Shown in pieces: positions 55,479 through 61,435 of a stretch of 64,000 nucleotides of DNA. Both the position numbers and the translations under genes were made by a program. This stretch comes from a virus. Numbering within the stretch: the first letter of the stretch is position 1; the number at the start of each line of letters is the position of its first letter. The notes beneath the pieces are model-generated. The model was not told the DNA's origin. It was given only the letters and a program-made list of their open reading frames with translations, and made no database searches. The stretch is from IMG/VR virus record IMGVR_UViG_3300025012_000056; one strand, written 5' to 3'.

Positions 55479-56093
55479 GTGGATAAGACACTAATCATTT
55501 GGTTAATTGGGGGAAACTGTACTGGTAAAACAACGCAAGCCAGAGAGATACACAAATATTTTCAAAAATTGCAAACACATTCAACAAAGGAAAGAGTAAT
55601 TGAGGAAAGTAATTTTTGTTATACCAGTATGTCTGACATATCTTGCAATGCGGGAAATCTTTTGAAAAGTCAATGTTCAGGAACAGATACACTTTCTACA
55701 AAACAACAAATTGAGGATTGCATCAATTATACAAAAGACCGTTATCCAATTGTTGTAATAGAAGGTATAATGGCAACCGGACAGTGGATTCACTTTTTAA
55801 AACAGCAAGACACCATACTATTTACAGTGTTTCTTAATATGACGCCAGAAATCAATTTTAAGATGGTTTCTCAGCGTCGTGCCGCAAAGAAAGGTATTGC
55901 CCCAACTGATATACAGATCAGTCAGAAAACAAAGGAAAATATGGCTTCTAAATTACGAGGATTCTTTCTTTTATATAATAGGATGCAACCGTTATCTGAT
56001 TTTGCAATGAAGATTGACGTTGATGGGAAATCAATAAAGAAAATATTTGGCGTGATTGAGAGACAACTACAAACGATTTTACTTTCAGTCTGA
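55479..56093 (+). CDS. P-loop nucleotide kinase-like protein
   Basis: GGNCTGKT Walker A, VVIEG; GTG start immediately after the ligase stop. Confidence 0.7.
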   Translation: MDKTLIIWLIGGNCTGKTTQAREIHKYFQKLQTHSTKERVIEESNFCYTSMSDISCNAGNLLKSQCSGTDTLSTKQQIEDCINYTKDRYPIVVIEGIMATGQWIHFLKQQDTILFTVFLNMTPEINFKMVSQRRAAKKGIAPTDIQISQKTKENMASKLRGFFLLYNRMQPLSDFAMKIDVDGKSIKKIFGVIERQLQTILLSV

Positions 56094-56229
56094 AATCTTA
56101 TTTCCAAAGTTATTATAAATACATTTATTTAGTGTAAGAAGTGGGCGAAGTATTAACCAATAAAAGTAAATTAAGGAACACAGTTATTACCAATAGTACT
56201 GTAAGTAAAAATAGTTTGTTTAACTTAAA

Positions 56230-56454
56230 ATGGAGATTAAAAGAATGGCTACAACAAAATTAGTTGCGTACTGCATGAAGACCAAACAGAAGAATGTTCC
56301 TTTTGTTGGAAAACCCAAAATCATTAAGACCAGTCGTGGTTCGTATATGGTTCAGGGCGTTGATAAGGCAGGGAACAAAATGGCCACAACCGTATCTGAA
56401 GCAGTCGCAATGGCTGCAATCAAAGAAGGTGTTGCTGTAAAGAACTGGAAATAG
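56230..56454 (+). CDS. Small basic DUF5679-like protein
   Basis: AYCMKTK...KTSRGSYMVQGVDKAGNKM pattern; Lys-rich; has its own promoter motif and terminator. Confidence 0.55.
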   Translation: MEIKRMATTKLVAYCMKTKQKNVPFVGKPKIIKTSRGSYMVQGVDKAGNKMATTVSEAVAMAAIKEGVAVKNWK

Positions 56455-56480
56455 TCCGGTTGTGAGTGAATAGTTGTTAC

Positions 56481-56513
56481 GAAGTCCCATTGAAAAGTGG
56501 GACTTCTTATTTT
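56481..56513 (+). terminator. Rho-independent terminator
   Basis: gaagtccca-8nt-tgggacttc perfect 9-bp stem followed by ttatttt. Confidence 0.8.
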
Positions 56514-58408: not shown

Positions 58409-59333
58409 TGTTCGAACAGAGAATGTAAGACTATTTAATACTCTTTCTATTGAGACTGGTTCAAGATGTAATAGGAAGTGTAAATTTTGTTTTTGTGGTC
58501 ACTATGAGCGACCGGATGTATTGCTTGAAATGGATATACTTGTAAGAGTTTGTAAAGAATTAGGGAGTATTAATTATAATGGCTTGGTAGAGTTGCAAGG
58601 TTTTGATGAACCGATGAGAGACAAAAGAATAGAAAATATCATTAAATTATTCAAAAAATTTGTTCCCAAAAGTTCTTTGTTAATAGCAACCAATGGGGAT
58701 TATATTAAGAATAAACAAGATATTAAAAAATTGTTCAATGCAGGGCTGAATCAATTGGTTATAGATTGTTATGATCCCAATAAAGATCGTATGTTAAAAA
58801 TGGTTGAATATTGCTTTGATTTGAAAGAAAATGATTTTAAAGATTTGAATTTTGGAGGAAAAGGAATGTATAGCTCTAAAAAATCAAAAACAATTGATGT
58901 TATTGATAAAAGCCATATGCTTGAAAGAGACAACAGAAGTTTGTTTAATTATGATCACAAAGATAAAAAATATAATGATTGTCTTGCAAACAATGCCGGA
59001 GCATTATTGGGAAAAGTGACTGGTTTGGGGGAACCAAATCAAAATAAGTATTGTGTGTTACCTTTCAGGAAAGCTACAATAGCTTATACAGGTATGTTAA
59101 CACTTTGTTGCCAACATGCTACAGGAGAAGTTAATTTTGGTGATTTAAGAAAAAATACTTTAATTGAATGTTGGAACAGTGACATCGCTAATGAGTATAG
59201 ATTGTTTTTACAAAATAATATGAGAAAAAATCTTAAAGGTTGTGAGAATTGTAGTTTCTTTGGGGGATTTTATCCACATATGATTACCAAAGTTACTTTT
59301 GGAGAAGAAATGGATGAGAAATTATTATCATGA
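58392..59333 (+). CDS. Radical SAM enzyme with SPASM/twitch domain
   Basis: CNRKCKFC (CX3CX2C), GFDEP, ATNG; C-terminal CVLPF...LCCQ...FGDL...CENC. Confidence 0.9.
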   Translation: MKKLVDVRTENVRLFNTLSIETGSRCNRKCKFCFCGHYERPDVLLEMDILVRVCKELGSINYNGLVELQGFDEPMRDKRIENIIKLFKKFVPKSSLLIATNGDYIKNKQDIKKLFNAGLNQLVIDCYDPNKDRMLKMVEYCFDLKENDFKDLNFGGKGMYSSKKSKTIDVIDKSHMLERDNRSLFNYDHKDKKYNDCLANNAGALLGKVTGLGEPNQNKYCVLPFRKATIAYTGMLTLCCQHATGEVNFGDLRKNTLIECWNSDIANEYRLFLQNNMRKNLKGCENCSFFGGFYPHMITKVTFGEEMDEKLLS

Positions 59334-60160
59334 AGATTTTAATTGCAGTCCCAAGTAAGAATCGTTGGAGAGATAATCAAATTCAGCGAAAAACATTAGC
59401 GTGGCTTCAATACACAAAATATGACTACGCAATCTTTGTAGAACCACAAGATTTACAAAATTATGTTAACAATATCCCTCAGAATATGGAGATTAGACAT
59501 CAGACTTTTGTTAATATAAAAGAGAATAATAAGGGAATGGGATATTGCAAGTTGATGATTCAGAAATATGCTCAAGAAAACAAATACGACTATATATTTA
59601 AGGCTGATGATGACATAATAGGTTGGAGAGACCCAGCGAATCGGGGATTGGGCCATAATGCTCCAAAGAGATCCAAAGAGTATCGTTGTAAAGAGATATT
59701 TGATCCAATGATTGACAAGTCTTTGGAGATGTTTAAAGAACTTGGAGAATATGTTGGGGGAGTCACCCTTCAGTATGGGAATGAAATGCGAGACTATGAT
59801 CCTGAAAAACCATGGATAGGAATAAACAAAAGATTACAATGTTGTTATATAGTGAGAACGGATTTGTTATGTCAGAGAGATGTAGAACATTTTAGTTTAT
59901 TTGAAGATTTTATGACTTTTGTTCATTTGATTAAAAGTGGTTATAAGACCATAACATATGGATTAACAGGAATAGAATATGATGGAATTGCTAATAGAGA
60001 AGGTGGTTTTCAAGATGTTGAAAGAATTAAAGGGAGTCTCCATACGATGATTATGGCGAAGAAAATATATCCTGATTTAATATGGAAGAAAGTGAATAAG
60101 CCATGGAAGTTTGAACCGGATTTTGCAAAAACAAAATTTATAGAAAGGATAAAAATATGA
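59330..60160 (+). CDS. GT-A glycosyltransferase, TAGT/JGT/GREB1-like
   Basis: IAVPSKNR, IFVEPQD..NY, NKGMG, YIFKADDD, FED, EGG. Confidence 0.68.
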   Translation: MKILIAVPSKNRWRDNQIQRKTLAWLQYTKYDYAIFVEPQDLQNYVNNIPQNMEIRHQTFVNIKENNKGMGYCKLMIQKYAQENKYDYIFKADDDIIGWRDPANRGLGHNAPKRSKEYRCKEIFDPMIDKSLEMFKELGEYVGGVTLQYGNEMRDYDPEKPWIGINKRLQCCYIVRTDLLCQRDVEHFSLFEDFMTFVHLIKSGYKTITYGLTGIEYDGIANREGGFQDVERIKGSLHTMIMAKKIYPDLIWKKVNKPWKFEPDFAKTKFIERIKI

Positions 60161-60510
60161 AACAAATTTTAATGCCAACCATATTTGTAAAGTATGGTGA
60201 GACAGGAACAATAAAAGATTTTCTTGAGAATAAAGAAGATAAGGAAATTTATGGGGAGGATGTTAAAATAGTTTGCGAATTGTTAGAAGCAAAACCAGAG
60301 GAAATAATATTGACGACTTCTGATGAAGATTTTAAATTCACAAAACAAGAACTTTATTTGATGGCGAAAGAATTAAAAAGTGATAGCGGAGAAACATTGT
60401 ATGAATATAATGGTTTGAAGTTTTGTTATCAATATGTAGAAGGAGGATTGGAAGTTTATCAATTTGTAAAAAATAATTTGAAAGAATATGAGATCACCAG
60501 CAGTAAGTGA
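60157..60510 (+). CDS. Acidic hypothetical protein within the modification operon
   Basis: 117 aa, overlaps both neighbours. Confidence 0.5.
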   Translation: MKQILMPTIFVKYGETGTIKDFLENKEDKEIYGEDVKIVCELLEAKPEEIILTTSDEDFKFTKQELYLMAKELKSDSGETLYEYNGLKFCYQYVEGGLEVYQFVKNNLKEYEITSSK

Positions 60511-61435
60511 CGCAAATGAACATTTATTACCAGATCAGAAAATAGATGTTGTTGAGGAAAATTTAAGGTTATTTTGGTATTGGATCTACGAAAGGCATAG
60601 CATATATCATCGTAGATTTATATTGAAACAGAAGCCACCCTGGACAAAAGATCCATTGTTGAGGGATTTTAAATTTACAAATGCTTATAGAGAATTAGAT
60701 AGAGTGTCGCAATGGGTCAAGAACAATATTATTAATACAGAAGACACCAAATTCAACAAACTTTTTACACTAATATCTTTCAAGTTGTTTAATAAGATTG
60801 AGACATTTGAGGAGATTGGCCTACAGCATTATGATACATTTAACCCAATAGAGTTCGAGAAAGGTCTTAAGAGGATTGTAGATAGAGGAGGAAATCCATT
60901 TACGGATGCTTATTTAGTCAATTCGATGGCGTTCCAAGGAATGAGAAAATACACTGCCTATTCAAGACATGTGATCCCTTTTGTCCATAAAGAAATGAAA
61001 GCATTTTATCGTACAATTCTAACAGCAAAAGAACCTGAAGAGATTATCAAACATTTCTCAGTAATAAAGGGAGTTAGTAATTTTGTGGCGTATGAATTGT
61101 ATTGCGATTTAGATTATTTTGATCCGCCAATAATGAAATTTGATCAGAATGATTATGTAAATACTGGACCAGGAGCAGCAACTGGGGTCGCTTGGATATT
61201 TCCTTCTCGGGCATCTTCTTACAAAGAATGTGAAAAAGTCATTTATGAGTTAAAAAACAAACAAAAGTATTATTTCCAGATATTCGGTTTCAGCGACTTC
61301 CCATATCTCAACAACAAATACGGTAAATTATCTCTAAGAGAAATTGAGCACTCCCTTTGTGAGTTCCAAAAATATAAAAAAATGCAATTGGGGTTTGGAA
61401 AAAGAAGACAGAAATTTATTCCACATATTTATTAA
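60488..61435 (+). CDS. 5-hydroxymethyluracil DNA kinase (aGPT-Pplase1 clade)
   Basis: FWYWIYERHSIY, PPWTKDPLL..FKFTNAYRELDRVS, GVSNFVAYEL..DL, GPGA..G, REIEHSLCEFQKY. Confidence 0.85.
   Translation: MRSPAVSDANEHLLPDQKIDVVEENLRLFWYWIYERHSIYHRRFILKQKPPWTKDPLLRDFKFTNAYRELDRVSQWVKNNIINTEDTKFNKLFTLISFKLFNKIETFEEIGLQHYDTFNPIEFEKGLKRIVDRGGNPFTDAYLVNSMAFQGMRKYTAYSRHVIPFVHKEMKAFYRTILTAKEPEEIIKHFSVIKGVSNFVAYELYCDLDYFDPPIMKFDQNDYVNTGPGAATGVAWIFPSRASSYKECEKVIYELKNKQKYYFQIFGFSDFPYLNNKYGKLSLREIEHSLCEFQKYKKMQLGFGKRRQKFIPHIY

Follow-up and report, generated by a model that had tools for sequence, protein, structure and literature searches.

The DNA stretch analyzed here, IMG/VR record IMGVR_UViG_3300025012_000056, comprises 64,000 nucleotides of a virus (hereafter, the window), and the system in question is a cluster of nine open reading frames (ORFs) at positions 55479–61435. 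Judging from gene content, this cluster is probably a system of thymidine hypermodification based on 5-hydroxymethyluracil (hmU) and built of two joined modules, and the virion DNA would carry an undescribed amino-sugar derivative of thymidine, either beside the adduct made by an amino-acid:DNA transferase (ADDT) or combined with it. The original prediction, made from the letters of the window, was of a new hypermodified base or of two bases in parallel; it is supported in substance, with three corrections that concern the identity of the kinase, the placement of two small ORFs, and the kind of radical S-adenosylmethionine (SAM) enzyme.

Hypermodified thymidines shield phage DNA from restriction and CRISPR nucleases, and have yielded enzymes for DNA labelling; to our knowledge, in all hypermodification pathways characterized to date the tailored group is an adduct of an amino acid or of a polyamine. 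If our reading is true, the cluster represents a different chemical class, in which hmU bears an amino sugar tailored by a BtrN-type radical SAM enzyme, and a single operon unites this chemistry with the classical route of the 5-hydroxymethyldeoxyuridine (5-hmdU) DNA kinase (5-HMUDK) and ADDT; the gene set is small, about six enzymes. The reading also bears on the function of clade 1 of the aGPT-Pplase proteins (PF18723), which here and at related loci accompany glycosyltransferase and radical SAM genes, including loci that show neither a kinase nor ADDT.

Gene content of the cluster

The cluster lies between a DNA ligase gene (54147–55478), whose stop is abutted by the start of the first ORF, and a portal gene (61557–63209). 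All nine ORFs are on the + strand:

55479–56093, + strand: P-loop protein with a Walker A motif, candidate 5-HMUDK
56230–56454, + strand: small basic protein of 74 amino acids, DUF5679-like, at the head of the cassette
56497–57486, + strand: ADDT (aGPT-Pplase2), PF18724 (28.2 bits), likely start at the ATG at 56521
57483–58124, + strand: PIG-L/LmbE-family metal-dependent N-deacetylase, 213 amino acids
58121–58408, + strand: ORF of 95 amino acids between the PIG-L and radical SAM genes, with a Cys-containing N-terminus
58392–59333, + strand: BtrN-like radical SAM enzyme with a C-terminal SPASM/twitch domain (Pfam Radical_SAM and SPASM)
59330–60160, + strand: TAGT-family glycosyltransferase of the GT-A type, 276 amino acids, PF20691 (40.5 bits)
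60157–60510, + strand: ORF of 117 amino acids between the TAGT and PF18723 genes
60488–61435, + strand: stand-alone PF18723 protein (HMUDK_hel, aGPT-Pplase clade 1), 195.9 bits

From 56497 through 61435, successive ORFs overlap by 4–23 nucleotides. All ORFs of the cluster are intact, and the catalytic motifs of the PIG-L, TAGT, and radical SAM proteins are invariant. The chain of overlapping genes that had been proposed to run up to 61435 and to encode ADDT, PIG-L, radical SAM/SPASM, TAGT, and PF18723 proteins is confirmed by ORF calls, Pfam, PHROGs, profiles, and structural models; so is the P-loop kinase placed just upstream of it (Walker A motif, match to phrog_800, and similarity to gp49 of phage PaMx11). 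The two small ORFs of the original prediction both exist, but do not stand together: one separates the PIG-L and radical SAM genes, the other the TAGT and PF18723 genes. Since the same genes recur, at 40–82% amino acid identity, in four other metagenomic phages, where this neighborhood had been proposed to be sought, the cluster is, by its gene content, beyond chance.

The window as a whole has a low GC content (about 33%), with every gene on the + strand, and its replicative polymerase is Pol III alpha. Among cultured phages, no near-identical DNA was found for the window; its DNA is present in groundwater metagenomes from at least two studies.

The probable kinase and transferase module

In PHROGs, the 55479 protein corresponds to positions 34–192 of the 511 of phrog_800 (the N-terminal part; E = 4.9e-7), a family of 5-hmdU DNA kinases with and without fusion. 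Aligned over its whole length with PaMx11 gp49, which is the experimentally assigned 5-HMUDK of that phage (PMC8989533), the 55479 protein shows 22% identity (pairwise E = 8e-5); it has an orthologue with 46% identity in the same position of L014 (here and below, labels of this form denote stretches of other, mostly metagenomic viral, contigs compared with the window). Among cultured phages the 55479 protein has no tblastn match, and its comparison with gp54 of phage M6 yields no significant match.

The 60488 protein covers positions 3–275 of the 281 of the PF18723 profile and matches the C-terminal part of phrog_800 (292–470 of 511); its identity to M6 gp55 is 26% (E = 4e-24), and that to PaMx11 gp50, 28%. 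Earlier taken for an aGPT-Pplase1-like kinase, it retains the family assignment, but not the role of the kinase itself, as kinase and PF18723 proteins are encoded by separate neighboring genes in both PaMx11 (gp49 and gp50) and M6 (gp54 and gp55). We predict that the 55479 P-loop protein is the catalytic kinase, and the 60488 protein, its helical partner similar to M6 gp55. Fusion or direct adjacency of PF18723 and the kinase, as implied by the Pfam name, is not seen in the window, where the two genes are 4.4 kb apart. Complex prediction for the 55479 and 60488 proteins returned a score of 0.00, which is no answer and speaks neither for nor against binding.

The 56521 protein, as anticipated, matches the transferase profile (PF18724; cut-off 26.2 bits), covering positions 20–227 of 232; it also matches phrog_3271 (E = 2e-24). 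In tblastn searches, the most numerous relatives come from ViI-like phages (Ackermannviridae), with 25–26% identity over more than 90% of the length, and orthologues with 43–70% identity are found in L012, L014, and L008. Searches against PDB, with the single sequence and with a four-sequence profile, produced no meaningful match. Of the components of 5-HMUDK/ADDT clusters (Lee et al. 2018, 2021), the window has a P-loop kinase (the 55479 protein, on weak similarity), an amino-acid:DNA transferase (PF18724, phrog_3271, and the ViI-like homologues), and a source of 5-hmdU (see below); a tailoring enzyme of a described class, i.e., a pyridoxal phosphate (PLP) decarboxylase, an M6-type radical SAM isomerase, a flavin adenine dinucleotide (FAD) lyase, or an acetyltransferase, is not found in the operon.

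The sugar-type enzymes

The PIG-L protein has no Pfam match as a single sequence. Exhaustive search yields 68 homologues, and the family profile, compared with PDB, finds Dbv21 and teicoplanin Orf2* (E = 1e-8 for these two deacetylases) and also diacetylchitobiose deacetylase; all solved relatives of the family deacetylate conjugates of the N-acetylglucosamine (GlcNAc) type. The AlphaFold2 model (pLDDT 96.8) shows the Rossmann-like fold of LmbE, and its top eight Foldseek matches are all LmbE-type deacetylases (probability 1.0), among them MshB and, with TM scores of 0.61–0.67, Dbv21, teicoplanin Orf2*, and diacetylchitobiose deacetylase. The metal-binding and catalytic motifs (N-terminal PHxDD and, later, HPxH) are present; across 38 homologues His9 and Asp12 are invariant, while Asp11 and His125 are retained in at least 90%. 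In the cassette itself, PIG-L is seen in this phage and in L012/L013 only (50% identity).

The TAGT protein matches the N-terminal half of the PF20691 model (gathering score 27.5 bits) and phrog_842 (E = 5e-15). Its AlphaFold2 model (pLDDT 91) has the GT-A fold, resembles GlcNAc transferases, and matches GnT-I, POMGnT1, TarS/TarP, and the TAGT domain of GREB1. The Asp93-Asp94-Asp95 motif is invariant, so that the Pfam match, the GT-A fold, and the DxD motif are all present; comparison of the family profile with PDB sequences gave no meaningful match. As its Pfam name states, the family is defined by association with DNA-base-modifying enzymes. Structure prediction, suggested earlier as a check, agrees with the assigned families for both the PIG-L and the TAGT proteins.

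For the radical SAM protein, the sole significant sequence match in PDB is BtrN (E = 7e-17), with both domains aligned: in the second HMMER domain, residues 194–288 align with BtrN 164–256, and the four Cys in matching columns are invariant in the family. Invariant, too, are the CX3CX2C motif (Cys26, Cys30, Cys33) and five C-terminal Cys. By sequence, the protein has the features of BtrN-type enzymes, that is, the CX3CX2C cluster motif and an auxiliary Fe-S domain with aligned Cys ligands, compatible with either one or two clusters. Genes of this family adjoin glycosyltransferases, PIG-L genes, and aminotransferases. The enzyme probably acts on a sugar and, in the manner of BtrN-type dehydrogenases, might oxidize a secondary alcohol of an aminocyclitol or sugar to a ketone. 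The radical SAM and SPASM domains of the original prediction are real, but the enzyme does not tailor in the way of M6: the protein is BtrN-like and travels with a glycosyltransferase, and its identity as an M6-type glycinyl-thymine isomerase was rejected, as there is no similarity to M6 gp53.

No homologues of the radical SAM protein were found in genuine cultured phages. One candidate, MT835743.1 (L018, labelled "Bacteriophage sp."), was set aside as bacterial-looking, because its radical SAM gene is surrounded by genes for a methionine-type ABC transporter, an NlpA lipoprotein, and an amine oxidase. Single-protein queries of IMG/VR with the radical SAM and ADDT proteins yielded no close relatives; an alignment-based query retrieved 192 radical SAM relatives.

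The absence of a PLP decarboxylase from the operon, stated in the original prediction, is borne out by Pfam and family scans. A PLP enzyme of another type is encoded 9 kb upstream:

48715–49353, + strand: short PLP enzyme of the DegT/DnrJ/EryC1 type, 212 amino acids, PF01041 (E = 3e-24)

It is 42–45% identical to short DegT-like genes that adjoin PIG-L in L030–L032, L073, and L078; it may belong to the pathway, where it could serve as the aminotransferase that works with the radical SAM and PIG-L enzymes. The gene lies in a gap-free island of 12 genes (43098–51525), which also encodes methyltransferases (two Methyltransf_24, one Methyltransf_23, and one Methyltransf_25), TOD1/MUCI70-like and Glyco_trans_1_2 glycosyltransferases, and a weak Stealth_CR2 match. 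The 3' part of this island (a 178-amino-acid protein and the Stealth-like protein) is retained in L014 and in L019, the latter from the same contig as L003. The island could serve to decorate DNA, virion proteins, or the host surface. Between the island and the ligase gene, 53469–54125 encodes a protein with a bacterial-surface Ig-like domain (PF16403); a hexapeptide-repeat acyltransferase (10303–10968, PF00132, E = 6e-18) is encoded among the replication genes.

Probable supply of hmU

Two further genes of the window relate to the nucleotide pool:

12451–13665, + strand: enzyme with the thymidylate synthase (TS) fold, 404 amino acids, with a C-terminal extension, PF00303 (E = 2e-20)
17305–17940, + strand: HD-domain YfbR-like 5'-deoxynucleotidase, PF12917 (E = 3.5e-11)

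The TS homologue noticed earlier at 12451 groups with the hydroxymethylases of hmU phages: its best phage matches are the deoxyuridine monophosphate (dUMP) hydroxymethylase of SP10 (43%), SPO1 gp29 (38%), and PaMx11 gp51 (35%). It is probably a dUMP hydroxymethylase that supplies 5-hmdU monophosphate (5-hmdUMP) and, by homology, would provide the 5-hmdU that 5-HMUDK/ADDT clusters require and that either a dUMP hydroxymethylase or a TET/JBP enzyme can furnish; it is encoded 43 kb from the modification cluster. The HD protein is likely a nucleotide-pool accessory. HD proteins also come after the TS-like gene in PaMx11 (gp52) and M6 (gp59), and the occurrence of HD genes near replication or TS-like genes suggests a nucleotide-pool function common to hmU phages. 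In the window, the YfbR-like HD gene and a DUF3310 gene (together 17305–18376) are directly 3' of the Pol III alpha gene.

Conservation and shuffling of the modules

PF18723 orthologues with 41–82% identity are located upstream of the portal gene, either adjacent to it or with one small ORF between, in L002–L006, L008–L012, and L014; the PF18723 protein of L007 (41%) has a different gene context, with no such portal gene beside it. In this lineage of uncultured phages, PF18723 is constant at the portal; the genes that separate it from the ligase gene vary. In the closest relative, L012/L013, the order is ADDT, PIG-L, radical SAM, TAGT, PF18723, and portal. In L014 it is ligase, P-loop protein, small protein, ADDT, TAGT, radical SAM, PF18723, and portal, and L008 has the same set plus the ORF of 117 amino acids. 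The order of the TAGT and radical SAM genes is thus shuffled among the relatives.

At other loci, the cassette is reduced or rebuilt. L003/L004 contain sugar-activation genes (for a fusion of a HAD phosphatase with an APH-like kinase and for a nucleotidyltransferase), GT1, radical SAM, and PF18723, and neither ADDT nor the P-loop kinase at the locus. Here (4135–7020, on the contig of L019), a nucleotidyltransferase resembling heptose-1-phosphate adenylyltransferase and a GT1 of 462 amino acids replace ADDT, TAGT, and the kinase, which looks like the attachment of another sugar by the same radical SAM/PF18723 core. L006, L010, and L011 have PF18723 alone, without the rest of the cassette; there, it is preceded by a conserved membrane protein (132–147 amino acids) and a coiled scaffold-like protein (199–243 amino acids). 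No kinase is seen near PF18723 in L003, L006, L010, and L011 within 3–9 kb per side. Conversely, L015 (8174–14930) and L016 (3992–10748) contain only the pair of TAGT and radical SAM genes, directly upstream of an intein-interrupted family-A polymerase (PolA) fused to uracil-DNA glycosylase (UDG), the type of polymerase reported for phages with T-modified genomes (PMC13697223, PMC12686479).

Among the IMG/VR relatives of the radical SAM protein, those nearest to it (30–41% identity) come from seven distinct contexts. A glycosyltransferase (TAGT or GT1-like) adjoins the radical SAM gene in six of the seven, although in two of these the GT1-type match is weak; in L027, the remaining one, there is only an ORF weakly similar to TAGT, at a distance of about 3 kb. 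PF18723 is found within the flank in five contexts, and a TS-like gene immediately downstream in two (L022–L024/L034 and L026); no ADDT or kinase was found in any of the seven with our own hidden Markov models (HMMs). The cleanest kinase-free module is that of L022–L024, L026, and L034, where the genes for the glycosyltransferase, the radical SAM enzyme, PF18723, and the TS-like hydroxymethylase stand gene against gene, with no kinase or ADDT found. Taken by gene content, the sugar route is a separable and separately mobile module of glycosyltransferase, radical SAM, and PF18723.

More distant radical SAM relatives (23–29% identity) occur in sugar-tailoring clusters with NAD epimerase/dehydratase, class I/II and DegT aminotransferases, PIG-L (57 bits), and GT8. 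Three locus groups have, next to the radical SAM gene, a recurring unit of PIG-L directly followed by a short DegT-like gene (about 212 amino acids): in L030–L032 (about 4100–11900), L073 (7575–8866), and L078 (11783–13074), the radical SAM gene is accompanied by a class I/II aminotransferase, PIG-L, and the short DegT-like gene, with GT8, NAD epimerase, and an RmlD-like reductase nearby.

As for the small proteins of the cluster, homologues of the 56230 protein with 51–56% identity are found at the same place in L003, L008, and L014; its structure matches in the Atlas, a lead only, are DUF5679 domains of the kind found in fusions with topoisomerase and cold-shock domains. The 58121 ORF has no family match and no homologue in any compared locus, being seen in this phage alone. 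A homologue of the 60157 ORF (59% identity) is at the same place in L008/L009; Pfam, PHROGs, and Atlas yield no family or fold match for it.

Proposed pathway and alternative explanations

From the families, folds, and conservation of the genes, and from the joint travel of the modules, we infer the following chemistry. The 12451 TS-like enzyme would make 5-hmdUMP, and hmU would replace T in DNA. In the first module, the 55479 P-loop kinase would phosphorylate hmU in DNA, and the 56521 ADDT would displace the phosphate by an amine or hydroxyl nucleophile, most likely some amino acid. In the second, kinase-independent module, TAGT would add a sugar of the N-acetylhexosamine (HexNAc) type to a base hydroxyl, in the simplest case that of hmU, as in base J; the amino sugar left after removal of the acetyl group by PIG-L would be cationic; the BtrN-like radical SAM enzyme would oxidize a sugar hydroxyl to a ketone in an oxygen-independent manner; and the short DegT-like PLP enzyme encoded at 48715 may aminate this ketone. 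Amino-sugar steps are expected because the enzyme classes of the second module are those that build the amino sugars and aminocyclitols of aminoglycosides. The PF18723 protein, speculatively, might be a DNA-binding partner that presents the base.

Several observations weigh against this reading. The ADDT score barely exceeds the Pfam cut-off (28.2 versus 26.2 bits), and the profile alignment of ADDT with PaMx11 gp46 (hhalign) is not significant, so that catalytic residues cannot be transferred from gp46. The kinase similarity of the 55479 protein is weak. In the reconstitution with M6 lysate, gp54 and gp51 were enough, and gp55, the homologue of the PF18723 protein, was dispensable in vitro (PMC8989533). 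The sugar donor of TAGT is putative, and so is its hydroxymethylpyrimidine acceptor, proposed from the neighboring genes. PIG-L is absent from L008 and L014, hence deacetylation would be an optional branch. The distant radical SAM relatives are found in nucleotide-sugar clusters without DNA-modification genes, and so the radical SAM enzyme could act on a nucleoside diphosphate (NDP) sugar before transfer. Further, the ADDT and kinase HMMs applied to the IMG/VR loci were built from few sequences, and distant members could escape them; and the search of RNA runs found none that contains the cluster stretch.

The two modules might also form a single sequential pathway leading to one composite base, with the kinase and ADDT installing a nucleophile (an amino acid or other), TAGT glycosylating this adduct, and PIG-L and the radical SAM enzyme tailoring the sugar. 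In favor of such a pathway, the cluster genes are translationally coupled in one chain, and each of the four phages of the window's lineage has ADDT, TAGT, and radical SAM together. However, L015/L016, L003, and the seven IMG/VR contexts have TAGT with radical SAM, or GT1 with radical SAM and PF18723, while neither ADDT nor kinase is seen there, which argues that the glycosyltransferase needs no ADDT product, and the TAGT and radical SAM genes change their order among relatives; we consider the sequential pathway unlikely. The independent occurrence of the second module favors parallel or alternative use of hmU sites over its action atop the ADDT adduct, and the favored outcome is still either one novel hypermodified base or two that are formed side by side.

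Less probable still is that action on DNA is confined to the kinase, ADDT, and PF18723, and that the 43–51.5 kb island, TAGT, PIG-L, and the radical SAM enzyme jointly make or tailor a glycan or nucleotide sugar for other purposes, e.g., for virion proteins or the host surface. In line with this explanation, distant radical SAM relatives occupy nucleotide-sugar clusters (L030, L033) around which no DNA-modification genes are seen, and a large island of glycosyltransferases and methyltransferases, partly kept in relatives, lies 5 kb upstream; the explanation is opposed by the definition of the TAGT family through its link to DNA-base-modifying enzymes, by the gene-against-gene order of glycosyltransferase, radical SAM, PF18723, and TS-like hydroxymethylase in L022 and L026, and by the position of the three genes in the window, wedged between ADDT and PF18723 with overlapping stop and start codons. 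Finally, the cluster might yield nothing new, being inactive, with plain hmU or T in the DNA, or leading to a base already described. The weak ADDT and kinase matches speak for such an outcome; yet the ORFs are intact and 40–82% conserved, and H-x-x-D and H of PIG-L, DDD of TAGT, and CX3CX2C and the auxiliary Cys of the radical SAM protein are invariant. With the operon also lacking any tailoring enzyme of the known pathways, this outcome is very improbable.

The reading of two joined modules can be extended to a more specific, and doubtful, version: TAGT, radical SAM, and PF18723 would build the amino sugar directly on hmU, independently of both kinase and oxygen, by addition of HexNAc, deacetylation, radical oxidation of a sugar hydroxyl, and transamination by the short DegT-like enzyme; the 12-gene island would extend it to a methylated oligosaccharide; and PF18723 would be a general base-presenting subunit rather than a part of the kinase. 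If true, this would be aminoglycoside-like chemistry performed on a DNA base.

Comparison with known systems

The described tailoring classes are the radical SAM isomerase, PLP decarboxylase, FAD lyase, acetyltransferase, amidotransferase, and amidoligase, and the glycosyltransferases on record are those for 5hmC or 5hmU that TET/JBP enzymes produce (PMC8989533, PMC11472151, PMC12686479, PMC13326640, PMC13458397, 10.1101/2023.12.21.572611, 10.1101/2025.08.14.668559). A full-text literature search found no description of TAGT, BtrN-like radical SAM, and PIG-L together with 5-HMUDK and ADDT.

The 5-AcNmdU cluster of PaMx11 consists of gp46 (ADDT), gp47 (FAD lyase), gp48 (acetyltransferase), gp49 (5-HMUDK), gp50 (PF18723), gp51 (TS-like), and gp52 (HD) (PMC8989533, PMC11472151). 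PaMx11 and the window share separate P-loop kinase and PF18723 genes, ADDT, a TS-like hydroxymethylase, and an HD protein; the logic would be common as well, hmU being phosphorylated in DNA and the phosphate then displaced. In the window, however, PIG-L, BtrN-like radical SAM, and TAGT take the place of the FAD lyase and the acetyltransferase, and the kinase and PF18723 genes, adjacent in PaMx11, are separated by 4.4 kb, with the hydroxymethylase 43 kb off. The 5-NedU cluster of M6 comprises gp51 (ADDT), gp52 (PLP), gp53 (radical SAM isomerase), gp54 (kinase), and gp55, so that ADDT, the kinase, the PF18723 homologue gp55, and a radical SAM enzyme are again in common. Still, gp53 is a photolyase-like protein of 480 amino acids, unrelated to the radical SAM enzyme of the window; M6 has neither a glycosyltransferase nor a deacetylase, whereas the window operon is without a PLP decarboxylase. 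The 5-NeOmdU pathway of ViI involves the kinases gp67 and gp243, the serine:DNA transferase gp247, and the PLP decarboxylase gp226; the ViI-like Ackermannviridae provide the most numerous tblastn relatives of the window ADDT, but their decarboxylase has no counterpart in the window operon.

Among systems with sugars, the kinetoplastid glucosyltransferase of base J, JGT, reportedly belongs to the TAGT family and acts on hmU in DNA (so placed, it is said, by Iyer et al. in 2013). In both base J synthesis and the scheme proposed for the window, glycosylation of the hmU hydroxyl falls to a GT-A enzyme of the TAGT family; the hmU of base J comes from a JBP dioxygenase, whereas that of the window would come from the TS-like enzyme, and the window sugar is probably a HexNAc that is tailored further. 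Phages SP-15, YerA41, and Carin-5 have thymidines modified with oligosaccharides, and blocks of glycosyltransferase, nucleotidyltransferase, and deacetylase genes (PMC12686479). The UDG-fused PolA of the SP-15 group is also found in L015/L016 with the pair of TAGT and radical SAM genes (PMC13697223). Unlike this group, the window has Pol III alpha as its polymerase; the linker chemistry of the SP-15 type differs, and no kinase/ADDT route is described for the SP-15 group.

In the biosynthesis of butirosin and its 2-deoxystreptamine core, BtrM is a GlcNAc transferase, BtrD an LmbE-type deacetylase, BtrN a radical SAM dehydrogenase, and BtrS a DegT-type aminotransferase. The presumed acceptor in the window is DNA rather than an aminocyclitol, the similarity to BtrN is distant (E = 7e-17), and the DegT-like protein is unusually short; nevertheless, the same four enzyme classes are present in the window, the fold of its PIG-L protein matches GlcNAc deacetylases of glycopeptide pathways, and BtrN is the only solved homologue of its radical SAM enzyme.

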